A DNA stretch of 39,002 nt from a virus. Lineage: Duplodnaviria > Caudoviricetes. The DNA is taken from the IMG/VR virus record IMGVR_UViG_3300016467_000609, positions 1-39,002 of that record. One strand, written 5' to 3'. The translations under genes and the position numbers were made by a program. The notes beneath the pieces were generated by a model. That model saw only the letters and a list, made by a program, of their open reading frames with translations. It was not told where the DNA came from and made no database searches. Below are positions 10,695 to 28,822 of this stretch, in pieces; within the stretch, counting starts at the first letter, position 1, and each line of letters opens with the position of its first letter.

Positions 10695-10708
10695 GTAAGT
10701 TGTTGATG
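10695..10708 (-). promoter_or_regulatory. IHF-like site
   Basis: TAAGTTGTTGATG matches the reverse of WATCAANNNNTTR except the terminal W. Confidence 0.4.
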
Positions 10709-11321
10709 TTAAAGGCTTTTCCGCCAAAAGCCGCTCCTATAAGACTACTGCTTAAAAAATAAGCATCCTATAAGGTCGAAACCAGGAACGAACCTCGACG
10801 TTTCTGATCGACCGAAACGACCTTGGCCAAGCGTCAGAACAGCACCAGAACGCGATCCAATCGACCAGCTGAACCACCGACCGCACCGACCTCGGAAAAC
10901 GTCTCAAAACGCGATCTATCGAACCGAGCCCAAGAAAGCCCACTTCCCGCAACAAGGAACAAGCAACTTCAGGAACAACTACATACATCTATAAGAAGGG
11001 CCAGGAATTCCCAACAACTTCCCGCACAACGAAGTACGGCAAGACTTCCGTATACAGACGATCGGCATCAACAAGAACGACGACGGAAAAAACAACCTCG
11101 GCGACGGAGAACAAGAACAACACGGAGAAGAACAAAGAGCGGAACAAGAAGGAAGTGAAAGTCAAAGAACGGGGCGGAAAGAAAGGAGAACAGAACGACA
11201 ACAACAACAACGGGGCGGAAGTAGTCCCTTCATCAATCGCAAGCCAATCTCACACAACCTTATAGAAAAAAGTTCGGCGCGAAATCACAAAGTCCAATGC
11301 CGACAACAACTTACATCCGTT

Positions 11322-11400
11322 TTCAGGTACGGCAGCAGGGTCGTATGTAGAGCCATGGAGTCGATTTCAGGTACGGCAGGCGCGAAGCTCAGGCGTACGG
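11322..11400 (+). repeat. Module A copy 1: TTCAGGTACGGC-..CCATGG..-TTCAGGTACGGC
   Basis: 12-mers at 11322 and 11366 (44 bp apart), CCATGG at 11353. Confidence 0.85.
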
Positions 11401-11421
11401 AGATGGAACTGGTAGGCCGCT

Positions 11422-11657
11422 CCTATAAGGTTTCCATGGGCTTTGTATAAGGTTTCCATGGCCGTTTTTGGCCTCTCCTATAAGGTTCCATGGCTTGCCC
11501 TATAAGATTTCCTATAAGGTTCCATGGACGCTGTATAAGGTTTGGCTCAACCATGCGGTTTGCGCCCTATAAGGTTCCATGGCCTTCCTATAAGGTTTCC
11601 TATAAGAATGCAGCATCGCAGGCCATTCTCAGGCCATGGACAAAGCTCAGGCCATGG
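11422..11657 (+). repeat. Phased array of (CC)TATAAGG-TT(T)-CCATGG units
   Basis: TATAAG at 11424, 11446, 11479, 11501, 11513, 11534, 11568, 11589, 11601; CCATGG at 11434, 11456, 11488, 11522, 11577, 11634, 11652. Confidence 0.9.
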
Positions 11658-11685
11658 AGACTTTCTAGGCCAGTGCGAGTGCCCA

Positions 11686-11714
11686 ATGAATGTCCGCTCT
11701 CGGTCTGGTGTAAT
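11686..11714 (+). promoter_or_regulatory. TCC-box promoter
   Basis: ATGAAT-GTCCGC..17-TGTAAT then TCAATCACTG. Confidence 0.5.
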
Positions 11715-11752
11715 TCAATCACTGCGATGTTGCAGCGAAACGAGAGACGGAA

Positions 11753-11965
11753 ATGCTAAAGGTCAAGATCAAATCCTACGATGAGCACTTCGACACCTAT
11801 GCCTGCGAGTTCACCGACAGCCTAAACGAGACGACGATCCAGTCGCTCATTCCTGCGGTGATGCTGCCCTACGTTGCGCCGACGGTGTGCGCGCTGTGTG
11901 AAGACCTTCCATTCGAAGCGGTCGGTTTCTCCTTCTACCTGCAGCTGCCGAAAGAAGGTGCGTGA
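11753..11965 (+). CDS. Hypothetical protein
   Basis: Downstream of promoter; coupled to next ORF. Confidence 0.55.
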   Translation: MLKVKIKSYDEHFDTYACEFTDSLNETTIQSLIPAVMLPYVAPTVCALCEDLPFEAVGFSFYLQLPKEGA

Positions 11966-12213
11966 TGAACATCCTGGACAACTGCAACCTGACAGACAAG
12001 GAAGCGGACTTTCTGGTGCCTGCGATCAACTACTTCGGCGCAGGTTCTCATCCATGCGCTGACGAAGCGTCCATCTACTTCTTCACGCCCAACTACGCGA
12101 TCGAGTGTTTGGACAAAGCGATCGAGTCGGCATCGCTCAATCCGTTCTTTCCGATGAGCTTTGCGCTTGCGCTGAAGGAAAAGCTGGAAACGCATCAAGC
12201 CCAATTCGCTTGA
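11962..12213 (+). CDS. Hypothetical protein
   Basis: GTGATG overlap with upstream stop; AAGG upstream. Confidence 0.6.
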   Translation: MMNILDNCNLTDKEADFLVPAINYFGAGSHPCADEASIYFFTPNYAIECLDKAIESASLNPFFPMSFALALKEKLETHQAQFA

Positions 12214-12307
12214 TGCCTACGAACCGAGTGCAACGCTCGGTTCCTGGTCAGCCTGAACAGTCCATGGAGTACGGCGAGACCGAAGTTGGACTCCCGCTCG
12301 GACGAAG

Positions 12308-12386
12308 TTCAGGTACGGCTGGACAGAAGTCAGGGCCGTCCATGGAAGAAATTCAGGTACGGCAGGGCTGAAGTTGGAGTACGGCT
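12308..12386 (+). repeat. Module A copy 2
   Basis: TTCAGGTACGGC at 12308 and 12352 (44 bp apart), CCATGG at 12340. Confidence 0.85.
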
Positions 12387-12461
12387 AGGACGAAGCGTGC
12401 GTAGAGGTAGGAGCGCAGGTAGGCGCTCGGGTGCGCGTGTCCATGGACGGCGGCGGAACGC

Positions 12462-12518
12462 GGATGCGGATCGTCCTCATCCACCCGCCTGGATGCGGAT
12501 CATCCTCATCCGCATCCA
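12462..12518. repeat. Direct plus inverted repeat GGATGCGGATCRTCCTCATCC
   Basis: Copies at 12462-12482 and 12491-12511; perfect 11-bp stem 12490-12500/12508-12518. Confidence 0.8.
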
Positions 12519-12543
12519 ACTCTCCTATAAGACACAAGACCAG

Positions 12544-12588
12544 TCTCCTGTCTTATATAAGACCCATCTCCTGTCTTATATAAGACCC
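12544..12588. repeat. Tandem 22-bp repeat containing the perfect palindrome GTCTTATATAAGAC
   Basis: TCTCCTGTCTTATATAAGACCC at 12544 and 12567. Confidence 0.9.
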
Positions 12589-12765
12589 GCTCCACTCTCC
12601 TACAAGACTTCCGCCCGCCGTTTCTTACCACAAAAAAGCGCGCGCCGTCAATAGGTGAAAACCACTAGAAAAAAATTTACGTGCCCATGGTTTTCAGCAA
12701 AAAATCAGCGTATAATTTACATCACTGCAGCACGGTGCTGCAGTACAAACCAAATGAGGTACATC

Positions 12766-13389
12766 ATGAGCAAAGCAAAGCAAACCACCAACAAGACCAC
12801 CACCACCACCACCGCTGCAGACCTGCAGCAGAACCTAATCGCAGCGTTTCAGGTGCGAATTGATAATGCTGAAAATGAAAACCAGCGCGATTATCTGAAA
12901 AAAGAACAGAATTTTTTCAGCGATAAAAACGCCGAAATCATTATCGAAAAATCAATGAGTCTGATTGATTATGCGCGATTCGCAAATCAGGTGAAAATCA
13001 CCGATAAAAAGAATCGCGATTATCTCGCGCAATATGTAATCAATAAAATTCGTCGTTTTGCATATGGTATCGCAAATAATACAAAATCTTTCATTGATGG
13101 TTATTCGAATTCGATTTTGTTTAATCTTAACGAATTGCAAAATATGACGATGAAATCGCGTTTGGTTTCTCTTTCAAAATCTGCGGTTTATCTTGAGACT
13201 GAAAAGATTCAAGATATTAAGCGCAAAATCAGCGTTTCGCTTAATACTGCAGACACTCAAGCGAGTAGCAGCAAACAAGCATTTATTTTCTTGAATATTA
13301 CAAACGGTCAAAAAGGTAAACGCGACGATGATATCGAATTCAAAGAAAATGAAATTGCAGATTATGTGAAAGCGTGGTTCGCACAATAA
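12766..13389 (+). CDS. AT-rich hypothetical protein, probable distant paralogue of the 1781..2605 C-domain
   Basis: TATAAT at 12711, 5' hairpin 12724-12744, GAGG RBS; motif S.NTADTQA....F..L.IT...KGK. Confidence 0.75.
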   Translation: MSKAKQTTNKTTTTTTAADLQQNLIAAFQVRIDNAENENQRDYLKKEQNFFSDKNAEIIIEKSMSLIDYARFANQVKITDKKNRDYLAQYVINKIRRFAYGIANNTKSFIDGYSNSILFNLNELQNMTMKSRLVSLSKSAVYLETEKIQDIKRKISVSLNTADTQASSSKQAFIFLNITNGQKGKRDDDIEFKENEIADYVKAWFAQ

Positions 13390-13390
13390 T

Positions 13391-13432
13391 AAATAAATGA
13401 GATAATGCGATAATCAATATCGCATTATCTCA
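13391..13432 (-). terminator. 15-bp perfect inverted repeat, possible terminator for leftward transcription
   Basis: TGAGATAATGCGATA-atcaa-TATCGCATTATCTCA; U-rich tail only on the minus strand. Confidence 0.5.
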
Positions 13433-13463
13433 AAATCAAATCAACTGAAAAGGTAAATTAAAA

Positions 13464-13541
13464 ATGAGCGATAAAGTCTTTTTGAATTGCTTATATATTA
13501 TTGGTGTATTTGGTTTTGTGATTATATGGTTAACCAGATAA
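13464..13541 (+). CDS. 25-aa hydrophobic peptide MSDKVFLNCLYIIGVFGFVIIWLTR
   Basis: AAGGT RBS, single TM-like stretch; below ORF track cutoff. Confidence 0.45.
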   Translation: MSDKVFLNCLYIIGVFGFVIIWLTR

Positions 13542-13831
13542 TCAAAAACTGATTATATCGAAAGTCCTAGAAAAATTCTGGGACTATGGGAGCGCACCCT
13601 TCCTCGTTCCGACCCCCAAATCGACCTTCCTTATACCAGGGGCCAAGACCCCGCATCGCAATCCTTATACTTCCACATTGGGAGTTGGGAGTCCAGTCTT
13701 GGGAAGTGAGAAATGGGACCGACCCTGGAAAATTCCCGATTGGGATGTGATGAATCCTTATACTTGCGGACGGGAAGTCCGAGCTGGTTCGCCAATGGTT
13801 CGCCAATCGCTATTCGCGAACTCCGAACGCC

Positions 13832-14218
13832 TCACTCCCAGGGCGGCCGAGCCTCGAAGTGAGAGCGCAGCTTCTCGGCGAACAGCACACGGACCCCGGC
13901 GGCTGTCGCCGCCGCGCACATGTCCCTTGTGCCAGCGCCTCCCTCGAACGCCAGGACGAGATTGGGCTTTCCGAGCTCCAGCATGAGCCGATTCCTGACG
14001 GGGCCAGCTCGATTGCCATGCTTCTTCCAGTCCGCAGGTACACCGTAAGCGGTGCAACCGTCTTTCTGAACCGCCCATTGCTCAGCGAACGTGTCAGCAC
14101 CTTGAGCGCAACCGTGGATGACCAGATCGACCGTTTTCTTCGCGCTGAGAGCATCGAGACACCACCACACGAACTCGCGGTCAGTGAAGTCTCGACCGCC
14201 ACAGACGAGCACCCGCAT
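13832..14218 (-). CDS. SLOG superfamily protein (DUF2493/YspA-like)
   Basis: MRVLVCGGRDF, HGCAQGAD..A..WA, PADWKKHG.RAGPVRN..ML, VLAF.GG.GT.DM. Confidence 0.85.
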   Translation of the reverse strand: MRVLVCGGRDFTDREFVWWCLDALSAKKTVDLVIHGCAQGADTFAEQWAVQKDGCTAYGVPADWKKHGNRAGPVRNRLMLELGKPNLVLAFEGGAGTRDMCAAATAAGVRVLFAEKLRSHFEARPPWE

Positions 14219-14484
14219 TACCGGCTTCCCCGAACCTGAACGCCGTCGTGATCCACTCGTGGATCGTGGCAAGCACAGCCTCGCTCGAAGCAGCCTTGGT
14301 CGATCGTCACGGACTCGACGGCTTCATCCAGGGTTTCGAGGATCGAGCGAAGCTGCGGGATCGCCTTTTCGTCCATCAGAATCGTCACGTCGGGGTAGCG
14401 GGGCATGGCGATCTTCAGCAGACCGTCTTCTTTCCAGACGGTTGCGTAGATCGTGCCGCCGGGGGTTGTGATGCTGTGTCTCAT
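14218..14484 (-). CDS. Hypothetical protein with C-terminal GCxERGCxCHD motif
   Basis: Coupled junctions at both ends. Confidence 0.6.
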   Translation of the reverse strand: MRHSITTPGGTIYATVWKEDGLLKIAMPRYPDVTILMDEKAIPQLRSILETLDEAVESVTIDQGCFERGCACHDPRVDHDGVQVRGSR

Positions 14485-16606: not shown

Positions 16607-18157
16607 TCACCGTCCAAGCCCAAGTTTTTCGTAATCGAAGTCCTCGCCGTCGGCCAGGATGTTCTCGCCGAACCCTTCAGTGGTCTTGATGATGTTCAGC
16701 CGCTGCAGGCTGTGATCCTTCAGGTAGCGATTGGAGTCGTCGAAGAAGTCCAGGATCAGAGCGATGTTCGGGCCAGACTTCTTGGCTCGCAGACCTCGAC
16801 CGATGCGCTGGCGCAAAGCGACTTCAGCCTTGCCACCGCCGGCCAGGATGACAAGACCAACAGCCGGCACGTCCACGCCCACATCCAGGATCGTGGAGCC
16901 AATCAGAACGTCGATTCGGCCGTCCGCGAGCTTTTTCAGAGCGGCCTTGCGCTCGGTCTGGTCGTTCTCGCCATAGATGAACTCGGCCCGAACACCCGCT
17001 TCGCGCAGCTTGTCCAGCAGCAGCTGGCCATGTGCCTTTTGCTGGATGAGAACCATTGTCGATAGCTTGTGGCGTGCTGCTCGAGCACATTCGGCCACGA
17101 TCAGCCTGTTGCGCTCTTCGTTGTTGACGATGCCCAGGCGGTAGGCGGCCTGCCAGGGAGTGCCGCGAAGCAGCCCCTTGGGCTTTTCCGCGAGCTTGGC
17201 GATCTTGAAGATCGGCTTGGCCAGAATGCCCCGGTCGATCAGCATCTTCTCCGTCACCTTGATACCGATCGAGCCGAACGCGGCCATCAGGCGCATGTTG
17301 GACTCCTCGTCGTCCTTCATGAAGGGAGTGGCAGTGATGGCCAGACGGTAGTGAGCGTTCTTGCAGTGCTTCAGAATCTCGTAGTAGCTGTTGCCGCTGG
17401 CCTCGTGCGCCTCTTCGCCGATCACGAACTCGAACTTGGCCAGCAGCGCAATCGTCTGGTTGCGGATCGCAGTCTGACGGTTCTGAACTTCGATCGGATC
17501 GTCCGGATTGGGCTCCTGCAGACGTGACACCAGCGTCTGCACCATGCCGACGCTCATTTTCTTGATGTATGACCGGCCGGCGTCGTCCGTGTACCCGAAC
17601 TGACCATCCCCGAGCACCGAGCAGGCGATGCCGAGGTCTTTCTCGAACGTCTCCTTCATCTGGTACATGAGGATCGAGCGTGTCGTCAGGAACAGGGTGG
17701 GGCGGTTAATCCGCATGAACGCCAGGCGTGCGATCCGTGACTTGCCGCCCCCTGTGGCCACCTGGGCGATCATCGAACCGTGCTTCACGAGCCGGTTGAC
17801 GGTCTCCATCTGGTAGTCGTAGCGCGAATCGTCGGGAAACGCATCGACCTTCGGGTTTTCAGGCCCCAGAGCGAGCGGCAGTGGCTTGCGAACCCGGTGA
17901 ACGGTCTTTCCCGAGCGCGACAGGTGCGCCACGACGTAATTCACGAACCCAGCAGGAAAGGTGGCGGCGCGGAAATCGAAGAACGAGCTGCGGCCGTCCC
18001 AGTTGCCCATCTTGAACGAGGCGGTGTGCTCGGCACCCTCGACCTTATAGGAGAGCAGCGACTGCACATAAAGTTTTACATCACGCGGGGCCTCATGCAA
18101 CTTTGCGATAGTTGCGTTGTAGGCGATGGTGACACTGTTGGCTGAAAAAATTGTCAT
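16607..18157 (-). CDS. SF2 DEAD/DEAH-box helicase (UvsW/Rad25-like)
   Basis: Q-motif DYQ, Walker A ATGGGKS, motif II EEAH, motif III TAT, GVDVP, QRIGRGLR. Confidence 0.9.
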   Translation of the reverse strand: MTIFSANSVTIAYNATIAKLHEAPRDVKLYVQSLLSYKVEGAEHTASFKMGNWDGRSSFFDFRAATFPAGFVNYVVAHLSRSGKTVHRVRKPLPLALGPENPKVDAFPDDSRYDYQMETVNRLVKHGSMIAQVATGGGKSRIARLAFMRINRPTLFLTTRSILMYQMKETFEKDLGIACSVLGDGQFGYTDDAGRSYIKKMSVGMVQTLVSRLQEPNPDDPIEVQNRQTAIRNQTIALLAKFEFVIGEEAHEASGNSYYEILKHCKNAHYRLAITATPFMKDDEESNMRLMAAFGSIGIKVTEKMLIDRGILAKPIFKIAKLAEKPKGLLRGTPWQAAYRLGIVNNEERNRLIVAECARAARHKLSTMVLIQQKAHGQLLLDKLREAGVRAEFIYGENDQTERKAALKKLADGRIDVLIGSTILDVGVDVPAVGLVILAGGGKAEVALRQRIGRGLRAKKSGPNIALILDFFDDSNRYLKDHSLQRLNIIKTTEGFGENILADGEDFDYEKLGLGR

Positions 18158-18164
18158 CAGGTGG

Positions 18165-18208
18165 TTGCCAAGTTCTTATATAAGGATTATAGTCCCGTCA
18201 TCACTGAC
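18165..18208 (+). promoter_or_regulatory. Promoter of the ParB/ABC/GNAT operon
   Basis: TTGCCA-17-TATAGT; palindrome CTTATATAAG (18175-18184) in spacer; operator GTCATCACTGAC at 18197-18208. Confidence 0.7.
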
Positions 18209-18227
18209 TGAACAACATCGCCTTTGC

Positions 18228-18887
18228 ATGAGCAAGATCAAGTTGGAAACCCGCAAGCCATCTGAGCTTGTAGCAAACCCCTGGAACACCAATGTGGTGT
18301 CGCCGGAGAACCAAAGCAAGCTGGAAGAAAGCGTCAAGCGATTTGGCATGTTTAAGCCGATCGTGATTCGCGAAACCGACGAGGGCCTGCAGATCATCGG
18401 TGGCCAGCATCGCTGGGAGGCGGCTCAAAGCCTGGGTCATGCAGAGGTTCCAGTCATCAATCTGGGTCGTCTCAGCGACAAAAAGGCCAAAGAAATCAGC
18501 CTGGTGGACAACGGCCGCTACGGGGCTGACGACACCCTGCAGCTGGCCAGCCTGCTGGAAGACATCGGCGTTGATGCGGAGGAGTTGGCCAGCTTCATGC
18601 CGTACTCCGAGAGCGACTTCGCTTCAATCTTCTCGTCTGTGAATATATCGCTGGACGATCTTGATCTACCTGACGGGGATGAACTTCCCGCAAAAACTCC
18701 CAGCTCGAAACCTGTGCAAACGCACCAAATCATGCGTTTCAAGGTTCCTGTCGATGATGTATCAGTCATCACTGACTTGATCGAACGGACGATGAAAGAA
18801 CAGCGATATGTGGACGAAGATTCACTTTCTAATGCCGGGAATGCCTTGGTCTTTCTCCTTACAAAAGTCGAATCCGACGAGGAGTGA
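18228..18887 (+). CDS. ParB/Srx-like N-terminal domain protein
   Basis: L.ANPWNTN, L..S...FG..KPIV, IIGGQHRW.AA..LG, DN.RYG. Confidence 0.85.
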   Translation: MSKIKLETRKPSELVANPWNTNVVSPENQSKLEESVKRFGMFKPIVIRETDEGLQIIGGQHRWEAAQSLGHAEVPVINLGRLSDKKAKEISLVDNGRYGADDTLQLASLLEDIGVDAEELASFMPYSESDFASIFSSVNISLDDLDLPDGDELPAKTPSSKPVQTHQIMRFKVPVDDVSVITDLIERTMKEQRYVDEDSLSNAGNALVFLLTKVESDEE

Positions 18888-18891
18888 CGAC

Positions 18892-19062
18892 ATGGACAAA
18901 TTTCCTGAGTGCGAAAGCTGCATGAACAAGGAACTGGACCCGTTCCAGTGTGACGACTGTGAAGATGCGTGCAACTTCGAACCTTACGAGGAAGAGGAAG
19001 ACGCCAGCGTCGAAGAAATGAGCATTCAGGAATTTGTGGAGTTTTGGAGAAGCGGACAATGA
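18892..19062 (+). CDS. Small Cys-rich acidic protein (Zn or Fe-S candidate)
   Basis: CESC...CDDC..AC; GAGGAG RBS. Confidence 0.6.
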   Translation: MDKFPECESCMNKELDPFQCDDCEDACNFEPYEEEEDASVEEMSIQEFVEFWRSGQ

Positions 19063-19721
19063 GCAAGACCGGATTGCCTGGCCAGATCACCGTCTGGGCC
19101 ATCGACAAGATCAGCCCCTACGAGCTGAACGCCAAGATTCACGACGACAAGCAGGTCGAGCGGATCGCCAAATCCATCAAGGAGTTCGGCTGGAGTCAGC
19201 CGATCGTGGTGGACAAGGACGGCGTCATCATTGCCGGCCACGGGCGTCGCCTGGCCGCCATCAAGCTGGGGCTGGACAAGGTGCCGGTCTGGGTGCGCGA
19301 CGACCTCAACGTCGAGCAGGTGCGGGCGCTGCGCCTGGCGGACAACCGCGTGGCCATCGGTGACATCGACACCAGCTTGCTGCAGAAAGAGCTGGCCAGC
19401 CTGGATTTCGACCTCGCCGGCATCTTCGACGCCAAGGAGCTCGACTTCCTCGAGGCTGACCTGGGCGAATTCAACGCCGATGCGTTCGTGGATGACATCG
19501 AGGTGGAAGTCGAAAAGCAGACCAAGGAATCGACCAAGACGGTCGAAGCCGCCGACGAGCGCGAGGTCAAGATCGACAAGGCGCTCGGCTTCAAGAGCAT
19601 CAAGGGCGCCGACGAGCGTCACGTTGCCCGCTTCATGGCTCAGATCGAAGCAGAGATGGAGGCCGAGGGCGCCGAGGCTTTCGTCAAGTTCGTTCGCGGC
19701 GTTCTGGAGGCTCAGTCATGA
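19059..19721 (+). CDS. ParB/Srx-like N-terminal domain protein
   Basis: PY..NAKIH...Q...IA.SI.EFGW.QPIVVD..GVIIAGHGR..AA..LG, LRLADNR; the form often fused to phage DNA methylases. Confidence 0.9.
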   Translation: MSKTGLPGQITVWAIDKISPYELNAKIHDDKQVERIAKSIKEFGWSQPIVVDKDGVIIAGHGRRLAAIKLGLDKVPVWVRDDLNVEQVRALRLADNRVAIGDIDTSLLQKELASLDFDLAGIFDAKELDFLEADLGEFNADAFVDDIEVEVEKQTKESTKTVEAADEREVKIDKALGFKSIKGADERHVARFMAQIEAEMEAEGAEAFVKFVRGVLEAQS

Positions 19722-20086
19722 GTGACGTATTCAACGGGCTGCCTCGCCGTATCAAGGTCGGGCAGTACACCTTTCGCGTCGTGATCTCCAACGCCACGGC
19801 GCACCCCGATCTGGAGGGCTGCGACGGCATCACGGACTTCGAGAAGTTCCGCATCTACCTGGCCGAATCGCTGCATCGACAGCGAGCCATCAACGTGGTG
19901 CAGCACGAGCTGACGCACGCAATCAACTGGGTCTACGGCGTGGATGACGGCGCCGAAGAGGAAACGATCACTACCCAGCACACCAACGGCTTGATCGAAC
20001 TTTGGGTCTCCAACCCGAAGGTCTTCAACTGGTTCGCCAAGTCCCTGCGCGCCATGAAGCGCGAGAACGCAAAGGACGACGAATGA
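19718..20086 (+). CDS. HExxH zinc metallopeptidase-like protein
   Basis: G.T......IYL.......VVQHELTHA...EE. Confidence 0.6.
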   Translation: MSDVFNGLPRRIKVGQYTFRVVISNATAHPDLEGCDGITDFEKFRIYLAESLHRQRAINVVQHELTHAINWVYGVDDGAEEETITTQHTNGLIELWVSNPKVFNWFAKSLRAMKRENAKDDE

Positions 20087-20211
20087 CGGTGCCGATCAGT
20101 GTTCTGGTGCTGCTGTCGCTGCTGGCCATTCCTGGCGCCTTGCTGGCGCTCTTGTGGGTCTGGGCAACGGTGAAGCTCGCGATCATCTATTGGAAGGAAG
20201 GTGTGTTTTGA
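20083..20211 (+). CDS. Small membrane protein (42 aa)
   Basis: ATGA coupling; long hydrophobic segment. Confidence 0.55.
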   Translation: MTVPISVLVLLSLLAIPGALLALLWVWATVKLAIIYWKEGVF

Positions 20212-20870
20212 CCACCTACATCATCGACAAACAGTTCCAGTCCCATGTGGACCGCACCGATCGCGTGCTGGAAATCGCCGAAGCGTTCGGTCTGGGCCTG
20301 GACGACAAGACGTTTGTCGTCTTCGAGAACCAGCCCATCGAAGTGGAGCAGGGCGACGTTGTCTACATCACGGGCCAGTCGGGCTCCGGCAAGTCGCTCG
20401 CGTTGCGCGAGCTGAAGGCAAAAATGTCGGCCGACGGCCTGCAGGTCGCCGATGTGGATGAGGTGCCGCTGGACGCCACCAAACCACTCATCGACCAGAT
20501 CGGCAAGACCACGGCCGAGGCGTTGACCTACCTGTCGATCGCCGGCCTGAACGACGCCTACCTGTTCGTTCGCAAGCCGCAGGAGCTCTCTGACGGTCAG
20601 CGATACCGCTTCAAGCTGGCCAAGATCATCGAATCGGGCGCCAAAGTCTGGATCGCTGACGAATTCCTCGCCGTGCTCGATCGCACGACCGCCAAAGTCA
20701 TCGCCTTCAACCTTCAGAAGATCGCCCGCAAAGTCGGCGCGACATTGATGGTGGCAACCACACACACGGACATGGTCGAAGACCTGGCGCCGAATCTGTA
20801 CATCGAAAAACGCTATCGGGAAAAGATCGAGATCGTTCGCACTCCCGCCGGCTACAAGGAGAACGAATGA
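20208..20870 (+). CDS. Stand-alone ABC-family ATPase
   Basis: Walker A GQSGSGKS, signature LSDGQ, Walker B VWIADEF, H-loop ATTH; TTG start overlapping upstream stop. Confidence 0.9.
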   Translation: MTTYIIDKQFQSHVDRTDRVLEIAEAFGLGLDDKTFVVFENQPIEVEQGDVVYITGQSGSGKSLALRELKAKMSADGLQVADVDEVPLDATKPLIDQIGKTTAEALTYLSIAGLNDAYLFVRKPQELSDGQRYRFKLAKIIESGAKVWIADEFLAVLDRTTAKVIAFNLQKIARKVGATLMVATTHTDMVEDLAPNLYIEKRYREKIEIVRTPAGYKENE

Positions 20871-21187
20871 ACGCCGACGAGCAAACCTTTGAAGAAGCCA
20901 TGCTGAAGTCCTGGAACGAGGAGACGGGCGCCGTGTCGTTCGTACTGTTCTCGTCGCCGAATTGCGCGCCATGCGGTCGCGTGAAGGCCGCTCTGGAGCG
21001 TCTGGAGAATGCCGGCGCCTTGCGCCATGACGTTGGCTACATCAACGTCTACCACGCCGCTGCGGCCGCGATGAAGACCAACGTGCGCTCCGTTCCGGTG
21101 CTGGTTCGCTTCGAGCACGGCCGCGAAGTCGGCCGCCTGACGGGCGACGCAACCGAGCCGAAACTGCTCGACTTCGTGAATGCCTGA
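20867..21187 (+). CDS. Thioredoxin-like protein
   Basis: FSSPNCAPC active site, cis-Pro VRSVP, F.HG.EV.R..G. Confidence 0.85.
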   Translation: MNADEQTFEEAMLKSWNEETGAVSFVLFSSPNCAPCGRVKAALERLENAGALRHDVGYINVYHAAAAAMKTNVRSVPVLVRFEHGREVGRLTGDATEPKLLDFVNA

Positions 21188-21458
21188 GATGAGCTTCGCG
21201 GACGCCACGATCATCTTCCTGGGAGCGTTCATCAACGTCTTCCTGCTGGGCCTGCAGTCACGCAATGTCGTTGCTGGCCGGTATGTGGCCGCCATGGCAA
21301 CGTCGGCCGGCATCTCGCTCGCTCAGTTCATCTTCGTGAAGTTCGCAGCCACGGGCTCGATCGCCGTACTGATGGTCTCGACCGCCGGCGGCTGCCTGGG
21401 CATCGGAAGCGCCATTTGGTTCTACCGTCATGTGATGGAGCGTCGCCATGGTCGATAA
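21180..21458 (+). CDS. Small three-TM membrane protein
   Basis: Three hydrophobic segments; GG.LG...A motif. Confidence 0.7.
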   Translation: MPEMSFADATIIFLGAFINVFLLGLQSRNVVAGRYVAAMATSAGISLAQFIFVKFAATGSIAVLMVSTAGGCLGIGSAIWFYRHVMERRHGR

Positions 21459-22365
21459 CCAAGACATTCGCATCGAGCGCCGCGAGGTGCCCGCCAACCA
21501 CATGCTCTCGCTGCTGCCCAACATCTACGTCGAGCGCGGCGACATCGAAGACTGGAATCTGCTGCACGAGCTTCACTACAAGGCGGAAAGCCTGGGCATC
21601 GGCCCGCGCATCTACCGCTGCGTGCTGGAAGAGGGCGGCCGACGCCAGGTCATTGGCGTGGGCGTCATGACGGTTCCGAAGATGCTGCTGTCGGGCCGCA
21701 ACGAGGTGTTCAAGCACTTGAAGCCCAACACGGGCGGCATGGACAGCCGTCTCATCAACCGCACCCGCGCCTACTGGATCAACGATCACGCCTGTACGAA
21801 CAGTCGTCTGGTGCTGGACACCATGTATCGAGGCGCCGGCATCGCCTACCGCATGCAGAACATCATGATGCGAATGACTGGCTGCCAGGTGATCGAATTC
21901 CAGTCGTCGATGAGCAAGTTCAACCCCTTCGCGGCAAAGGCAGGCATCCGATTCACCAAGCCCAAGCGCAGCGCCAACTACGACAAGGGTGTCAAGTTCT
22001 TCCGTCGCTGGTTCGACTCCAACCCCTCGGATTTCATGGGCGTCATGGCGGAGCTGAAGGCGATGCCCGCAGCGGTGCGCGCCAAGTGCGAGCGAGAGAT
22101 GCGGGACTTCTACTACGCCTGCTCGGCACTCGAAAAGACCGGCAACGCCCGCTTCCGAGGTGAGGATCGTCGCGAAAACATGGAAGTGGGCTATCTGCTC
22201 AAGAGCCTGCAGCAGCTGGTATTGGCCAGTCCGCTGTACGGGGTCTACATCAACCCCGACGCCAGTCCCGAGAAGGGCAAGAGCGTTCTTCCGGCCCGCG
22301 TGCCTGTCATCGCTTTCGACAACCAACCCACCGATCAGCCTCTGGACCTGTCCTGGCTGCCCTGA
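21448..22365 (+). CDS. GNAT-fold acetyltransferase-like protein (Mom-like candidate)
   Basis: LHELHY; SRLVLDTMYRGAGIA acetyl-CoA-binding motif A; MSKFNPF..KAG. Confidence 0.7.
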   Translation: MVDNQDIRIERREVPANHMLSLLPNIYVERGDIEDWNLLHELHYKAESLGIGPRIYRCVLEEGGRRQVIGVGVMTVPKMLLSGRNEVFKHLKPNTGGMDSRLINRTRAYWINDHACTNSRLVLDTMYRGAGIAYRMQNIMMRMTGCQVIEFQSSMSKFNPFAAKAGIRFTKPKRSANYDKGVKFFRRWFDSNPSDFMGVMAELKAMPAAVRAKCEREMRDFYYACSALEKTGNARFRGEDRRENMEVGYLLKSLQQLVLASPLYGVYINPDASPEKGKSVLPARVPVIAFDNQPTDQPLDLSWLP

Positions 22366-22368
22366 ACC

Positions 22369-22695
22369 ATGCACCTGACCGTCAAGCAAATCGAACTCCT
22401 GGCCGTGATCGGAAAGCGCAACCCCGATGGTGGCGCCACCGACCTCGACCAGATTCTCGAGCGGCTGTCATACAAGCCGACAAAGCAATCCCTGCAGTTT
22501 TCGATCCGAGCCCTGATCGCCCATGGTCTGATCCAAAAGGACGCGCCAGAGAAGCGTCGGGGCCGCACGCGCACGCTCATTTCCCTCACCAAGACGGGCG
22601 AGACGATGACGGGCAACCCGAGCACGGCGCCGGCGTTCATCGAAGACGAAGCCGACGAGCTGCTGGGAGACATCTCCGAGATTCTGGAGCCCTGA
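22369..22695 (+). CDS. Winged-helix DNA-binding protein
   Basis: LT.KQ.ELL..I...DLDQIL...TKQSLQFSIRALIAHGLI.K...RRGR.R..I.LT..G. Confidence 0.75.
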   Translation: MHLTVKQIELLAVIGKRNPDGGATDLDQILERLSYKPTKQSLQFSIRALIAHGLIQKDAPEKRRGRTRTLISLTKTGETMTGNPSTAPAFIEDEADELLGDISEILEP

Positions 22696-22697
22696 CC

Positions 22698-22807
22698 CTG
22701 CGGGAAACTGCGGGAAATTCCCTTCCCCTTCTATATATATAAGTAATAGATGACTGAAGAATTGAAAGTTGAAGAAGCGGGAGCGGGAAATCCCTCCCCT
22801 CGGGAAA
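22698..22807 (+). repeat. CGGGAAA repeats around a (TA)5 tract
   Basis: CGGGAAA at 22701, 22711, 22784, 22801; TATATATATA 22732-22741. Confidence 0.7.
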
Positions 22808-23151
22808 TCGAAGAGCTGGCGCTCGCGGTCGATACGCAGATCATGCGGATGCTCGGTCTTCGGTTTGAGATTCAGGACGACATCATCAAGGTCTGGGGTC
22901 GGGACGTGGAGCCTGACGAGACGAACTGGATGGTGGGCGAGCGGTTCTCGAGCAACCTGGCTGAATCCATGAACATCCTGGACGGTTTGAAGGTGACGGT
23001 TGCGTTCCATGAGGACGATGGCTGGCACTGGGCTGTCGTGACGTTCGGCGACGAAGGCGAGCTCGAGACAAGCGAAGCCCCGACCAAAGAGCTGGCCGGA
23101 GCCTACGCCGCCTGGGCAGCACTCTACGGACGCTCCGGAGGTAAGTCATGA
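22750..23151 (+). CDS. Phage ABA-sandwich domain-like protein
   Basis: FSSNL.ESM.IL..L....W.......EAPTKELA...AA..AL pattern. Confidence 0.45.
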   Translation: MTEELKVEEAGAGNPSPREIEELALAVDTQIMRMLGLRFEIQDDIIKVWGRDVEPDETNWMVGERFSSNLAESMNILDGLKVTVAFHEDDGWHWAVVTFGDEGELETSEAPTKELAGAYAAWAALYGRSGGKS

Positions 23152-23185
23152 CTGACTTGACAGTGTGTAGCAAAAATGCTACAGT
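23145..23185 (+). promoter_or_regulatory. Terminase-operon promoter abutting operator GTCATGACTGAC
   Basis: Operator 23145-23156; TTGACA(23157)-17-TACAGT(23180). Confidence 0.75.
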
Positions 23186-23212
23186 CGCCCGGAAATTCAC
23201 GGCTATCTCCTC

Positions 23213-23241
23213 TGGGCGTCTTCTCCACGCCCATTTTTTTT
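23213..23241 (+). terminator. Intrinsic terminator in the terS leader
   Basis: TGGGCGT-cttctcc-ACGCCCA-T8. Confidence 0.75.
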
Positions 23242-23258
23242 GACCGAAAGACAGAGCA

Positions 23259-23918
23259 GTGACTGAGAAGGCAGAAAAGCGCGGGATCAAGCCTGGAACC
23301 AAGACGAAGGGCAAGCTCTCCGACAAAGCATGGGCTGAAGCCACAACCCTGTGGAAGCAGGGCGTGGTCACGCTCGAGGAGCTGGCGGCGAAGTACGACC
23401 GGCATCCCCAGTCGTTCGCCCAATACTTTCGTCGGCGCGGGATCAAGAAGGGCCAGGACAAGGACAAGATCGCCAAGAAGGTCGAAGCCGCTGTCGAGAA
23501 GCAGGAGCTCAACGACGCACAGATGATCGCCGCTCGCATTCGCGAGACAAAAGAGGATCACTACAAGATGGCCGCCGGCCTGGCGAAGCTCACCTGGGCC
23601 GAGATTCTCAAAGCCAAGCAAGATGGGGTGCCCGTCGGCACCGCGATCAACAATCTGAAGGCGCTGGAAAGCGCCATGAACGTGCTCAAGAAGGCTCGCG
23701 AGGAGCGCTACAGCGTTCTGGGCCTGGATCGTCCGGATGCGATCGACGAGAACGATGTGCCGGAACTGGTGATCTCGGAGCTCACCGCCGACCAGATCGC
23801 CGCACTGCGCGAGCGTTCCTTCCGAGAGATGGACCAACTCGAGATCGCAGGCGACATCGAGGACGTTCCCGAGGAAGGCGCCGGCGACGACGACGCCGAT
23901 GTGGTCGAGGAGTCCTGA
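23259..23918 (+). CDS. terS: Terminase small subunit
   Basis: N-terminal HTH (W....TLEELAAKY), coiled-coil middle, directly upstream of TerL. Confidence 0.7.
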   Translation: MTEKAEKRGIKPGTKTKGKLSDKAWAEATTLWKQGVVTLEELAAKYDRHPQSFAQYFRRRGIKKGQDKDKIAKKVEAAVEKQELNDAQMIAARIRETKEDHYKMAAGLAKLTWAEILKAKQDGVPVGTAINNLKALESAMNVLKKAREERYSVLGLDRPDAIDENDVPELVISELTADQIAALRERSFREMDQLEIAGDIEDVPEEGAGDDDADVVEES

Positions 23919-25162
23919 TGGCAACAAAGGTCGGACTCTCGCTACACCCGAAGCAGATGGAGGTTTACCGCTCCGTGGCGCGGTATCGGGTGGTCGTGGC
24001 TGGCCGACGCTGGGGCAAGACCGCGCTGTCGCGGGTGCTCATCATCAAGAAGGCCCAGAAGAAGAAGCAGAAAATCTGGTACGTGGCGCCAACGTACAAG
24101 ATGGCCAAGCAGATCATGTGGGTGGACCTGATGGATGCGATTCCGCGCAAGTGGATTCGCAAGGTCAACGAAACCAGCCTCACCATCACGCTCATCAACG
24201 GCACTCGCATCGAGCTGAAGGGCGCCGACAAGCCCGATTCGCTGCGAGGCGTGGGTATCCACTTCCTCGTGCTCGACGAGTTTCAGGACATGGCCGAAGA
24301 AGTCTGGACGCTTGTGCTGCGTCCGACATTGGCCGACACGGGTGGCCATGCAATCTTCATCGGCACCCCCAAGGCGTACAACTATCTCTACGAGCTGTAC
24401 AAAAAGGGCCAGAACCCGAAACTCATCGCCGCCGGCGAGTGGGAATCCTGGCAGTTTCCGACGATCACCTCGCCCTTCATTCCGCTTGATGAAATTCAGG
24501 CCGCTCGCGCCGACATGGACGAGAAGAGCTTCAAGCAGGAATTCGAGGCGTCGTTCGAGACGATGTCGGGCCGGGTGTACTACCCGTTCGATCGCCACCT
24601 GCACGTTCAGTCCCTGGAGTTCAACCCGAAGCTGCCGATCTGGGTCGGCATGGACTTCAACATCGACCCGATGTCCACGGTGATCTACCAGCCGCAGCTC
24701 AATGGCGAACTGTGGGCCATCGACGAGATCGTGCTCTTCGGCTCGAACACCGAAGAGGTCTGCGAGGAGCTGGAGAAGCGGTACTGGCGTCACCAGTCGC
24801 AGATCATCATGTACCCCGACCCGGCCGGCGGACAGCGTCAGCACGCTCGGGGTGAGACCGACATGGACATCCTGCGCGAGAAGGGCTTCAAGCGGATCAA
24901 GTACCGCCGCAAGCACCCGCTCGTGGCTGACCGTGTGAACGCAGTCAACCGGATGCTCAAGGACGCCAACGGCAACGTGCGCCTGCGGATCGACCCGAAG
25001 TGCAAGCACTTCATCAACGCCCTGGAGCAGACGATTTACAAAAAAGGCACGCGAGAAGTGGACAAGTCGATGGGTATCGAGCACTCGGCCGACGCAGGCG
25101 GTTACTGCATCGAGCTGGAATTCCCGGTACGCAAAGTTGAAATTGGCGGCTTGTCAATCTGA
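23918..25162 (+). CDS. terL: Terminase large subunit
   Basis: LHPKQ, Walker A AGRRWGKT, Walker B FLVLDE, FIGTP, nuclease GMDFN and HSADA. Confidence 0.95.
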   Translation: MATKVGLSLHPKQMEVYRSVARYRVVVAGRRWGKTALSRVLIIKKAQKKKQKIWYVAPTYKMAKQIMWVDLMDAIPRKWIRKVNETSLTITLINGTRIELKGADKPDSLRGVGIHFLVLDEFQDMAEEVWTLVLRPTLADTGGHAIFIGTPKAYNYLYELYKKGQNPKLIAAGEWESWQFPTITSPFIPLDEIQAARADMDEKSFKQEFEASFETMSGRVYYPFDRHLHVQSLEFNPKLPIWVGMDFNIDPMSTVIYQPQLNGELWAIDEIVLFGSNTEEVCEELEKRYWRHQSQIIMYPDPAGGQRQHARGETDMDILREKGFKRIKYRRKHPLVADRVNAVNRMLKDANGNVRLRIDPKCKHFINALEQTIYKKGTREVDKSMGIEHSADAGGYCIELEFPVRKVEIGGLSI

Positions 25163-25165
25163 GGA

Positions 25166-25194
25166 TTGACTAAGTCACCGCTGACGTATAAGAT
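25166..25194 (+). promoter_or_regulatory. Portal promoter with operator in spacer
   Basis: TTGACT-aaGTCACCGCTGACgta-TAAGAT (17-nt spacer). Confidence 0.7.
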
Positions 25195-25204
25195 AGGAAA
25201 AATC

Positions 25205-26818
25205 ATGGCCAAACCAATCCTCCAACCAGGCGAGAGCATGACAGTCGACCCGGCATCGCCGGTGGCCGGCGGTGCGTCCGCGCCCCAGACCGACGACCAG
25301 AAGAAGCTGCGTGCCCTGATCGAGCGTCGCCATCCGGAGTACCACGAGTACAAGGACCACTGGGACTTCCTCGAGGACACCTACGAGGGTGGTCGCGAAT
25401 GGTTCAAGGGCAATGTCTTCCGGTACATCAAGGAGGGCGACACCGAGTTCGCCGACCGCCTGAATCGGGCGTACCGCTTCAACCACAGTCGCGAGGTCGT
25501 GGACCTGCTGAACAAGTACCTGTTCAAGCAGAACATCACCCGCAACGAGGCTGACGCTCCGGAGTCGGTCAAACGCTTCTGGGCCAAGGCCACCAAGAAC
25601 GGGCTGCACATCAAGGAGCTCTCGCGCCAGATCAGCAAGAAGACCTCCATCTACGGGCGCATTGGTGTGGTGGTGGACAACACCAACGGCGTCAACAACG
25701 CTCCGGTCGTCTCCAAAGCGGACGAGAAGAGCGCCGGCGTTCGCACCTACGCCTACACCGTCGGCCCCGAGCAGCTGCTGGACTACGCCTTTGACGAGGA
25801 TGGCGCGCTCGAGTGGATTCTGATCGAGGAGTGCGTGCGCGACGCCGCCGATCCAATGAACTCGAGCGGCGAGGAAGTTGAACGCTACCGCCTGTGGACC
25901 AAGACCGAGTGGCGTCTGTACCAGGAGTTCAAGGAAGGCCGGCGCAAGGTCGTCAAGCTCGTGGGTTCGGGCCAGCACAACCTGGGCATCGTCCCCGTCA
26001 TCCTGGCCGACAACATCATCTCGGACGAGGAATACAGCGCCCAGTCGCTGATCGACGAGATCGCGTACCTGGACCGTGCGGTCGCCAACTACCTCTCGAA
26101 CCTGGACGCGATCATCCAGGACCAGACCTTCAGCCAGCTGGCCATGCCGGCGCAGAACGTGCTGCCTGGCGAGGACAACTACACCAAGCTCACCGAAATG
26201 GGCACCAAGCGCATCTTCCTCTACGACGGGGAGGGTGGCGCGCAACCTTTCTATCTGTCGCCTGATCCAAAGCAGGCTCAGATGATCCTGGCGGTCATCA
26301 ACAAGATCATCAACGAGATTTACCACACGGTCGGTCTCGCGGGTGAGCGGACCAAGCAGGACAACGCGGTCGGTATCGACAACTCTTCCGGCGTGGCCAA
26401 GGCGTACGACTTCGAGCGAGTGAATGCTCTGTTGGCCGCCAAAGCCGATTCGCTGGAGGCGATTGAGAACAAGATCGCGTACATCGTCGCCAAGTGGAGC
26501 GGTGAAGAGGCCAAAGTGGAGAAAGACCTCGTGTCATATCCCGATGACTTCGACACTCGCGGCCTCTACGACGAGTTCGACATCGCCGCACGACTCATGC
26601 TCATCAGCGCGCCGGACGCGGTTCGCCAGGAGCAGATGAAGGCGGTGCTCGACAAGCTGTTCCCGCAGCTGGCCAAAGACCTTCGCAAGAAGATGGAAGC
26701 CGAGCTGAAGAAATGGCCCGTCGATCCGGCAGACCTGACAGCAGACCCGAACACCCCGGTTCCTGCAGGAAAGTCGAAAAGCAATCAAGGCGCCGTAGGC
26801 TCCTCGAAGGAGGAATGA
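25205..26818 (+). CDS. Portal protein
   Basis: Follows TerL; 537 aa; HNLG.VPV and SGVAKAYDF motifs. Confidence 0.85.
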   Translation: MAKPILQPGESMTVDPASPVAGGASAPQTDDQKKLRALIERRHPEYHEYKDHWDFLEDTYEGGREWFKGNVFRYIKEGDTEFADRLNRAYRFNHSREVVDLLNKYLFKQNITRNEADAPESVKRFWAKATKNGLHIKELSRQISKKTSIYGRIGVVVDNTNGVNNAPVVSKADEKSAGVRTYAYTVGPEQLLDYAFDEDGALEWILIEECVRDAADPMNSSGEEVERYRLWTKTEWRLYQEFKEGRRKVVKLVGSGQHNLGIVPVILADNIISDEEYSAQSLIDEIAYLDRAVANYLSNLDAIIQDQTFSQLAMPAQNVLPGEDNYTKLTEMGTKRIFLYDGEGGAQPFYLSPDPKQAQMILAVINKIINEIYHTVGLAGERTKQDNAVGIDNSSGVAKAYDFERVNALLAAKADSLEAIENKIAYIVAKWSGEEAKVEKDLVSYPDDFDTRGLYDEFDIAARLMLISAPDAVRQEQMKAVLDKLFPQLAKDLRKKMEAELKKWPVDPADLTADPNTPVPAGKSKSNQGAVGSSKEE

Positions 26819-26891
26819 TCCTCCGCACGCCGACAAGAGACTGTCGGCGTTCAACAACCAATGACCAAGAGAACGGTCAGAAAGGCAAACT

Positions 26892-27788
26892 ATGTTCGTA
26901 ACTCGCAATGTTGCAATGAAGTACCGCAACCCCACCAACGGAGATGGTGGAGACGGTGGCGGCTCTGGTGGCGGTGGTTCCGGTGGTTCCGGTGACGGCG
27001 GCTCTGGTGACGGCGGCAAACCCGATGACAAGGGTGGTGACGACGACAACAAGCCCGACGACAAGGGCGGCTCCGGTGACGGTGATGGCAAGGGCGGTCG
27101 CAACAAACCGTCCGACGAAGAGGCTCGTCTTCTCAAAGAGAACATGAAGAAGAAGGAGCAGCTCGACAAGGCTAACGCCGAGCTGAAGAAGGCTCAGGAA
27201 CTCCTGAAGAACTTCGAAGGCATCGACCCCGTGGCGGTCAAGAAGATGCTGGAAGACCAGCGCACGGCTGAAGAGAAAGCTCTCGAGGCCAAGGGCGACT
27301 GGGATCGTCTGAAAACGCGCATGGCTGAAGAGCATGGCAAGGAAGTCAAGACGCTCCAGGACCAGATCAAGCAACTGAGCGAACAGCTCAACTCCACCCA
27401 AAGCACGATCAAAGACCTGTCGATCGGCACCCAGTTCTCGCAATCGAAGTTCATTGCGGAAGAGCTGACGCTGACCCCCGGTAAGGCTCGTGTCATCTAC
27501 GGCGAATACTTCGACGTGGAAGACGGCAAGGTGGTGGGTTACGACAAACCTCGCGGCACTGCGAACCGCACGGCTATCGTCGATCAGTACGGCAACGCCG
27601 TTGACTTCGAATCCGCGCTTCGCAAGATCGTCGAGGCCGACCCCGAGAAGGATCATCTGCTCAAGAGCAAGATGAAACCTGGCGCTGGTTCGGATTCACG
27701 CAAACCGGCCGGTAGTGCAAAACCGGATGCGCCTACTGATGGTGTTTCCAAGATTGCGTCCGGTCTCAAAGGCTTGAACATCGCTTAA
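26892..27788 (+). CDS. Capsid scaffolding protein
   Basis: Gly/Asp low-complexity N-terminus, coiled coil, GAGS near C-terminus; immediately upstream of capsid. Confidence 0.75.
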   Translation: MFVTRNVAMKYRNPTNGDGGDGGGSGGGGSGGSGDGGSGDGGKPDDKGGDDDNKPDDKGGSGDGDGKGGRNKPSDEEARLLKENMKKKEQLDKANAELKKAQELLKNFEGIDPVAVKKMLEDQRTAEEKALEAKGDWDRLKTRMAEEHGKEVKTLQDQIKQLSEQLNSTQSTIKDLSIGTQFSQSKFIAEELTLTPGKARVIYGEYFDVEDGKVVGYDKPRGTANRTAIVDQYGNAVDFESALRKIVEADPEKDHLLKSKMKPGAGSDSRKPAGSAKPDAPTDGVSKIASGLKGLNIA

Positions 27789-27795
27789 GTTATAA

Positions 27796-27853
27796 GTCAC
27801 CAATGACTTGCAATTTGCCACAAACTGTGGTATAGTGCTGCCTCATCGGTGAC
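27796..27853 (+). promoter_or_regulatory. Major-capsid promoter bracketed by two operators
   Basis: GTCACCAATGAC 27796-27807, TTGCAA-17-TATAGT (27808-27836), CTCATCGGTGAC 27842-27853. Confidence 0.75.
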
Positions 27854-27910
27854 TTAGAGCGACGTAAGGGCCGAGACATTGACAACCCTCTCCTGGAAAG
27901 GATTCATCAA

Positions 27911-28822
27911 ATGGCTCTCCTGCGCCAAGAAGCTGAAAAGCTGAGCAACAACCAGCTGATCGCTGGCGTGATCGACGAGATCATCGACCGCGACGACCTG
28001 ATGGCCGTCCTGCCCTTCTCGCAAGTGAATGGCAAGGCCTATGTGTACAACCGTGAGAACACCCTGGGTGGTGCTGCATGGCTTGACCCCAACGAAGCGA
28101 TCGGCGAATCCGCTGCTACGTTCACCGAAGTGGTGGCGAAGCTGCGTATCCTCGCTGGTGACGTGGACGTGGACAAGTTCCTGCAGTCGACCATGGGCGA
28201 CACCAACGACCAGATGGCCGTTCAGATCGCCAAGAAAGCCAAGGCTGTCGCTCGCGAATTCCACCGCACTCTGGCCAAAGGCAACGCAACTGCCAACGCC
28301 AAAGAGTTCGATGGTCTGCCCACGCTGGCTGCCGCTGCTGGTGGCACCCAGACCGTGAACGCCGGCACCAACGGCAACGCCCTGACTCTGACCATGCTCG
28401 ACGAGCTGGTTGACAGCGTGCCGAACGGTCCCGATGTGATCGTGATGCGCCGTGGCACCATCCGTGCCTTCCGTGCTCTCCTGCGCGCCACTTACGGCAC
28501 CGACGCCGTGATGCAGCAGCTCGAGAACTTTGGCCGCCCGATGCTGACCCACAACGGCATTCCGGTCATCATGAACGAGTTCCTGGCTTCCGACGAAGCT
28601 CAAGGCTCCAACGCCAACACCTGCTCTGTCTACGCTCTGCGTCTGAACGAGCTGGATGGCCTGCATGGTCTGTATGGCGGCGGTAACGCCGGCATCGTGG
28701 TCGAGAACATCGGCACCGTGCAGAACAAGGACGCCACTCGCATCCGTCTGAAGTGGTACACCGGCCTGGCCCTGAAGAGCACCCGCTCCATCGGCCGTCT
28801 GAAGGGCGTGTCCAACATCTGA
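27911..28822 (+). CDS. Major capsid protein (HK97 fold)
   Basis: 303 aa, highly biased codons; LPF..V.G.AY.YNRE, GDVDVDKF, EFDGL, LKWY.GLA. Confidence 0.9.
   Translation: MALLRQEAEKLSNNQLIAGVIDEIIDRDDLMAVLPFSQVNGKAYVYNRENTLGGAAWLDPNEAIGESAATFTEVVAKLRILAGDVDVDKFLQSTMGDTNDQMAVQIAKKAKAVAREFHRTLAKGNATANAKEFDGLPTLAAAAGGTQTVNAGTNGNALTLTMLDELVDSVPNGPDVIVMRRGTIRAFRALLRATYGTDAVMQQLENFGRPMLTHNGIPVIMNEFLASDEAQGSNANTCSVYALRLNELDGLHGLYGGGNAGIVVENIGTVQNKDATRIRLKWYTGLALKSTRSIGRLKGVSNI

Follow-up and report, generated by a model that had tools for sequence, protein, structure and literature searches.

What do two ParB-like proteins, an ATP-binding cassette (ABC) ATPase, and a GNAT-fold acyltransferase do together ahead of phage terminase genes? 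The question is raised by an operon at positions 18228–23151 of IMG/VR virus record IMGVR_UViG_3300016467_000609 (Duplodnaviria; Caudoviricetes), of which we analyzed the whole 39,002-nucleotide stretch, here called the window; the record is linear, and the virus is about 37% complete. Gene fusions in relatives and a model of the complex identify the ABC and GNAT proteins as one split enzyme, and DNA base acylation is the likeliest job of this pair. On balance, we lean with modest confidence toward a core that uses ATP and acyl-CoA to acylate a base of phage DNA, most likely cytosine N4 in CC contexts, with an upstream island being kept free of the mark.

A split ATPase–acyltransferase

The core of the operon comprises four genes, each found in 36 of 36 loci. 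These are the loci, among 42, that have enough upstream DNA (six with <4.1 kb upstream of the GNAT gene were left out); many of them are closely related, and short divergent genes escape tblastn, but the division into core and cargo is clear all the same.

18228–18887, + strand: parB1, ParB/Srx N-terminal domain, GG[QE]HR motif kept (PF02195, E 8e-13; PHROG 723)
19059–19721, + strand: parB2, ParB/Srx N-terminal domain, GHGR motif kept (PF02195, E 1e-7; PHROG 930)
20208–20870, + strand: soluble ABC ATPase, equivalent to the N-terminal half of what is presumably a COG2401-type enzyme (Pfam ABC_tran)
21448–22365, + strand: GNAT-fold acyltransferase of 305 aa with YRGAGIA (PHROG 886; structure model and fold searches)

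The fusions present in distant relatives connect the last two genes. Of 185 distant GNAT relatives, the best 150 include 42 that are at least 360 aa long, and 40 of these carry an ABC domain of the window type at the N terminus, with phmmer E values down to 1e-66 between the window ABC and the fused relatives. Likewise, the fused proteins end in a C-terminal domain homologous to the window GNAT. We take the fused type to be COG2401/MK0520, and the database names of close relatives read [quoted passage not shown] In the window, the genes of the two domains are separated by 577 nt, an interval that holds the thioredoxin and membrane genes, and they thus form a split member rather than a single polypeptide.

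Two triple fusions (P0182 and P0230), both beginning with a ParB domain, join ParB, ABC, and GNAT in one chain, which bears out the ParB linkage proposed when the letters alone had been examined (hereafter the sequence-only reading). In addition, ABC–GNAT is fused to DNA polymerase B (P0197, P0235, and L120), to a GINS C-terminal domain, and to TFIIB repeats, and one ABC domain contains an intein (L116/L118, P0171, P0165, and P0175 are also among the proteins noted). P0164 joins the GNAT to a terminase-like N terminus, with a weak E value. Among the best 80 of 315 confirmed viral loci with a fused gene, which are mostly of one distant lineage, TerL lies within 6 kb of the fused gene in 53 and is usually the next gene upstream. 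The terminase linkage of ABC–GNAT, also part of the sequence-only reading, was seen in two lineages.

The model of the complex between window ABC and GNAT scored 0.65, while the best of three controls scored 0.00; the mark for this score is reached by 116 of 157 solved pairs and by 2 of 215 mismatched pairs. Contacts agreed between runs by at least 73%, with a partner pLDDT of at least 73, and the modeled interface takes in GNAT residues 125–130, the acyl-CoA loop. ABC and GNAT are thus predicted to bind, with ABC touching the acyl-CoA loop; because the halves of split genes tend to pass, the model supports rather than proves binding. It was on the fusions and this model together that the suggested split enzyme held up.

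The motifs of the ABC ATPase are intact (Walker A GQSGSGKS, signature LSDGQ, Walker B ADEF, and H-loop ATTH). It had been described as soluble and without a permease or binding protein, and neither kind of gene was found among those scanned at 16607–28822, the part of the window covered. A role as an ABC transporter was rejected on this ground and because the relatives are fused to GNAT, not to permeases. The label "ABC transporter subunit" of PHROG 886, the family of the window GNAT, is misleading.

The GNAT active site and its likely substrate

The window GNAT has no Pfam or NCBIfam match of its own, and its AlphaFold2 model (pLDDT 91) shows a GNAT fold; a large helical insertion occupies about residues 178–259. 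H43, Y44, R120, R128, E150, and M155 are invariant in all 84 aligned rows, and the acyl-CoA motif R-G-x-G is kept through R128 (84/84) and G131 (81/84). The family profile matches TmcA over 130 columns (probability 96%, E 3.6e-9), with the His-Tyr (HY) pair placed on the HY of TmcA (AHY) and SR on SR. None of 14 RimI controls has the HY pair.

According to PMC13433802, NAT10/TmcA need ATP and use the His-Tyr pair for catalysis. The window enzyme resembles TmcA/NAT10 in the His-Tyr pair, the beta4 arginine, the acyl-CoA motif, and an adjoining P-loop ATPase of the kind needed for the reaction. However, that ATPase is helicase-like there and of the ABC type here, a tRNA-binding domain is present there and not here, and the substrate is RNA there, whereas phage DNA is the inferred substrate here. 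The window GNAT is a single domain of 305 aa, without the in-chain helicase-like ATPase and RNA-binding domains of TmcA/NAT10, and the TmcA/NAT10 family PF13718 had 0 matches in the window, three controls being matched.

The sequence-only reading had likened the GNAT to Mom of phage Mu and had Mom using acetyl-CoA. The latter statement is outdated, as Mu Mom takes glycine from Gly-tRNA, not acetyl-CoA, and acts on adenine (PMC13219725). The Mom active-site set consists of H58, Y59, R111, S124, D149, and R151, among which H58/Y59 matter in Mom. Mom and the window enzyme have in common the GNAT fold, the HY pair, the beta4 arginine, a helical insertion, and, on the reading favored here, acylation of phage DNA bases. 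However, Mom is a lone enzyme on Gly-tRNA with no ATPase partner and has RNSES where the window family has R-G-x-G. In the alignment with Mom, the HY pair aligns, the rest of the active-site set is not reliably aligned, and the motif A region differs. The hhalign probability of the window GNAT family against Mom was 2–14% (13.6% in the family-profile run), the Mom Pfam family was absent among the families listed (25 of 27) for 52 aligned members, and the window protein had no Pfam match at E ≤ 1. Mom orthology was rejected. By profile comparison, TmcA stands nearer to the GNAT than Mom does. What survives of the earlier comparison is DNA base acylation as the likeliest job; the Mom match itself was weak.

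These comparisons bear on the reading that the machine is the same and its chemistry another, the DNA being marked at CC/GG on guanine (N2) or with a larger or aminoacyl group, as by Mom. The retention of R-G-x-G, in place of which Mu Mom has RNSES, argues against this, as do the weak Mom profile match and the absence of the Mom Pfam family, and we regard it as quite unlikely.

A PDB sequence search with the GNAT alone returned nothing, and one with the profile returned generic GNATs only. Most structural neighbors of the GNAT model are protein or small-molecule acetyltransferases, which favors a reading in which ABC–GNAT acetylates a protein (terminase, ParB, polymerase, or host RNA polymerase) or RNA and the island has another cause, e.g., an unrecognized phage enzyme or nuclease avoidance in first-entering DNA. 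That TmcA/NAT10 act on RNA points the same way, and phage GNATs that modify RNA polymerase are known, as stated in PMC7824862. However, the HY pair is missing from the RimI controls, and the fusion partners are all DNA-handling proteins. With the island evidence given below, we consider acetylation of protein or RNA unlikely.

A CC/GG-free island upstream of the operon

The island lies outside the region that the sequence-only reading covered.

12686–13564, no strand assigned: island free of the CC/GG motif, with CC nearly always as ACC/GGT; candidate mark-free segment
12766–13389, + strand: island gene of 207 aa, all-helical, with no Pro and with Gly only as GGT (PHROG 9272/4202)

Within the island, BCC/GGV (B being C, G, or T) occurs once, with 36.7 expected from the island's own composition, whereas ACC/GGT occurs 30 times with 17.6 expected. 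The segment is AT-rich (35% GC), is also without GATC, and contains TATAAT at 12711–12716. Its protein had no clear fold match and no tblastn match in the phage collection or the IMG/VR scan. A 25-codon hydrophobic ORF also lies inside the island at 13464–13541, after an inverted repeat near 13400–13430.

Homologous island genes are present in 16 of 31 related records. In 11 of the 16 loci analyzed, CC/GG is part of the motif that ranks first among those missing, for which 25–72 copies are expected, and five show no clear island; L224 and L235, near-duplicates of L225 and L236, were left out of the analysis, and the incomplete L230 was left out of one comparison. The missing motif is BCC in close relatives, which are free of it over 902–923 bp (L234 over 904 bp at 48% GC), and SCC (1859 bp), CCY, KCCT, TCCD, or CCAV in others. 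The depleted motif thus varies by lineage around a vertically conserved gene. In nickie, 1137 bp lack any CC or GG (105 expected), and the 184-aa island protein is without Pro, Gly, or Trp. In RHEph10, BCC is missing over 973 bp (74 expected), and SSU5 and Cyrano have weaker VCCT-free stretches (24 and 26, respectively). The island proteins of these four phages matched the window island profile at E 0.011 or worse, and their homology to the window protein is unproven because no profile match is significant.

Under one scoring rule, a CC/GG motif ranked first in all 13 lineage segments and in none of five controls (N15, P1 twice, T7, and the T5 first-step region), in which the best CC/GG score was 11–17. 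Moreover, 25 structural-region controls scored at most 22 for any motif, and 16 other segments from four lineage genomes did not exceed 25 overall or 21 where the motif contained CC. Families that could otherwise write a DNA mark, namely TGT, DpdA, C5, and N6/N4 methylases (PF01702, NF041059, PF00145, and PF01555), were found in none of the five relatives searched, two of them partial. Their absence leaves ABC–GNAT as the sole recognized candidate writer among the families tried.

Several observations weigh against tying the island to a DNA mark. The window's own island scores 23 on the common rule, one of seven listed variants in the island may create TCC, no island lies within 6 kb of the fused gene in the 80 viral loci, and all island carriers are kin. 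The link between enzyme and island is correlative.

As to other causes of the island, its lack of GATC would fit nuclease avoidance and so the protein or RNA reading above. However, total avoidance of CC/GG, which costs the nickie protein every Pro, Gly, and Trp, far exceeds that of palindromic restriction sites, and the first-entering DNA of T7 and T5 has no such island. It is very improbable, in our view, that the operon is a non-modifying genome-handling module (a ParB/ABC clamp that serves packaging initiation or maintenance of the plasmid state) next to an island that merely reflects low GC or a recently imported gene. The tight linkage to helicase and terminase and the AT-rich composition of the window island are in its favor, whereas the over-representation of ACC while BCC is absent, the BCC-free 904 bp of L234 at 48% GC, the difference of missing motif between lineages around a vertically conserved gene, and the invariant catalytic GNAT residues all speak against it.

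On the favored reading, DNA acylation by the split enzyme, both ParBs, which keep the ParB/Srx nucleotide-binding motif, would target or load ABC–GNAT on progeny DNA during late replication or packaging. ATP hydrolysis may open or position the base, a task that falls to the helicase domain in TmcA/NAT10, and the complex would present cytosines in CC contexts and acylate N4 late in infection, the target in the clade of the window being [C/G/T]CC. Marked progeny DNA would resist host nucleases. The mark would also hinder reading of the DNA, so that one early gene, whose expression from the marked DNA would be needed early in infection, would be kept motif-free. A fuller version, which we put forward tentatively as a possibility, is that a TmcA-like writer places N4-acetyl or another acyl group on cytosine in CC motifs genome-wide, with lineage-specific flanks (BCC, SCC, CCY, or all CC), and that the promoter and gene of the island are motif-free, even where its protein must do without Pro, Gly, and Trp, for expression from marked DNA on entry, as an eraser, an establishment factor, or a master regulator.

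Two genomes (G409 and G410; loci L224, L225, L235, and L236) carry two island-gene paralogs, one GC-rich and full of CC and the other partly depleted. Such pairs offer a way to see, in nature, if a duplicated gene is released from the constraint. Beside the window island, a gene at 13832–14272 (− strand) matches phrog_289 (labeled GTP-binding domain).

Conserved packaging front, variable cargo, and significance

The core stands among accessory genes and conserved neighbors, listed here with their occurrence in the 36 loci unless stated otherwise.

16607–18157, − strand: SF2 (UvsW-like) helicase, divergent, conserved neighbor (Pfam ResIII/Helicase_C/UvsW_N; 36/36)
18892–19062, + strand: Cys-rich 56-aa protein with two CxxC, likely a Zn ribbon, accessory (no family match; 17/36)
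19718–20086, + strand: small HExxH protein, metallopeptidase-like (SprT-like), accessory (PF10263 at E 4.5e-4, under the cut-off; PHROG 1233; 24/36)
20083–20211, + strand: 42-aa hydrophobic/membrane ORF, accessory (4/36)
20867–21187, + strand: CAPC thioredoxin, accessory (PF00085, E 8e-9; 23/36)
21180–21458, + strand: 92-aa membrane protein, accessory (phrog_7045, labeled holin, E 3e-18; 12/36)
22369–22695, + strand: small winged helix-turn-helix (wHTH) protein, probably core but fast-evolving (PHROG 900, weak MarR_2; 23/36 by tblastn)
22750–23151, + strand: 133-aa ORF without a family, accessory (10/36)
23259–25162, + strand: DNA-binding protein in the small-terminase position (PHROG 867), then large terminase (27/27 loci with enough downstream DNA)

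All ten tightly spaced, mostly overlapping open reading frames (ORFs) named in the sequence-only reading were recovered on the + strand at 18228–22695, and an eleventh (22750–23151) falls in the same range. Seven of the nine junctions among the first ten overlap by 4–11 nt, and the other two are spaced by +4 and +3. Pfam supported the two ParB_N domains, ABC_tran, and Thioredoxin, and the SprT-like and MarR/wHTH matches were weak.

The GNAT gene matched 31 phage and 967 plasmid records, and its carriers include SSU5, Cyrano, nickie, RHEph10, and phage-plasmids of Acinetobacter, Klebsiella, and Escherichia coli. Five annotated regions have a common gene order of helicase (− strand), ParB, ParB, ABC, GNAT, and a small gene, then terminase where the record continues; a small gene also occupies the wHTH position in nickie and RHEph10. 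The SSU5/AB-group phage-plasmids and the nickie/RHEph10-like phages share the gene order of the window through the DNA-binding protein and TerL (the SSU5 and Cyrano records stop before the terminase), whereas their cargo genes differ and their GNATs are 37–65% identical to that of the window. The expected co-occurrence of ParB1, ParB2, ABC, and GNAT was borne out by their presence, together with the helicase, in all 36 loci, among which are those of SSU5, Cyrano, nickie, RHEph10, and an Acinetobacter phage-plasmid. The operon is the conserved front of the packaging region in SSU5/AB/nickie-like phages.

In contrast to this core, the thioredoxin, Cys-rich, HExxH, and membrane genes are variable cargo. 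The thioredoxin, Cys-rich, and two membrane genes occur in 23, 17, 12, and 4 of the 36 loci, respectively, and tblastn picked up none of them in SSU5, Cyrano, nickie, or RHEph10; a part for them in the chemistry was not supported. Redox or metal chemistry through the thioredoxin and Cys-rich protein was rejected as a core function, as both are patchy across the loci. A CxxC between ParB and ABC in the two triple fusions leaves a small accessory role open. A cellular housekeeping role was also rejected, as 401 Pseudomonadota genomes gave one real match (the center genome, chosen for its prior match, which falls into five pieces) and four weak generic GNAT matches. A Halomonas homolog of the GNAT (G001:C1:1903937-1904787) is split across five frames, either because the gene is broken or through errors in the sequence. 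The ParB2 orthologs of nickie (L003 4322-5014) and RHEph10 (L004 4689-5351) are annotated "DNA methyltransferase"; they have only 220–230 aa and match ParB2, and the label was probably carried over from ParB–methylase fusions. In a comparison with ParABS, only the ParB_N domains match, and no ParA was found among the scanned neighbors in this fragment of a 37% complete virus.

Promoter-like and operator-like sites surround the operon.

18165–18208, + strand: sigma70-like promoter TTGCCA-17-TATAGT (18165–18193), then a GTCA-N4-TGAC palindrome, candidate operator (consensus match)
4261, 4287, 5574, 16595, 18197, 18765, 19715, 23145, 25174, 27796, 28839, and 38371: positions of the GTCA-N4-TGAC palindrome in the window

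A second sigma70-like site (23157–23185) precedes the terminase genes; both are consensus matches only, two such sites being found with 1.2 expected. The palindrome, often TAAGTCA-N4-TGACTT, is found 12 times in the window, where 0.9 would be expected, and most copies sit at the boundary of a gene or at a promoter-like site. Many relatives keep it, as does the locus of the Acinetobacter phage-plasmid; the loci of SSU5, nickie, RHEph10, and Cyrano lack it. A phage regulator probably uses it as its operator. Immediately ahead of the terminase genes, 23157–23243 combines a strong promoter-like site with a terminator-like hairpin within 30 bases, a pair for which attenuation, antitermination, or a small RNA is possible. 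Just upstream of the island, a long, largely non-coding stretch (10650–12650) holds many CTATAAG and CCATGG repeats, similar clusters being present in close relatives, and it could be a packaging or terminus region, perhaps a genome end. The window contains no tRNA genes. Near-identical DNA occurs in freshwater, estuary, and wastewater metagenomes, with no RNA data set among the sources listed; because the named relatives at about 70% come from Undibacterium and Duganella, our guess is a Burkholderiales host.

The idea of DNA acylation, offered as new in the sequence-only reading, was already in print. [quoted passage not shown] The two domains are common to that system and the window, are homologous, and occur in a viral context; in the window, however, they are two genes with cargo between them, two ParB genes before them, and a CC-free island alongside. 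The 2013 paper and its supplements may already describe this arrangement and bear on the ParB and terminase links. No experimental study of the ABC–GNAT system and no report of the island was found in the literature searched, subscription journals lying outside its coverage, and the accessible parts of PMC9928086 and PMC10853773 contain nothing on this module. New here are the match of the catalytic pair to TmcA/NAT10 and the CC/GG-free island, and the operon is a split member of the predicted kind.

The GNAT gene resides in common phage-plasmids of Klebsiella, E. coli, and Acinetobacter, where its usual label, "ABC transporter," is wrong. With the TmcA-like pair and the CC-free island, the 2013 prediction can be checked for a specific base, at one motif per lineage, and in phages available in culture. 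If the favored reading is true, the enzyme would carry out a new phage DNA modification, and its specificity would be legible from the motif-free island. This would explain a rule of genome architecture, bear on restriction evasion, and offer a DNA cytosine acyltransferase as a tool.

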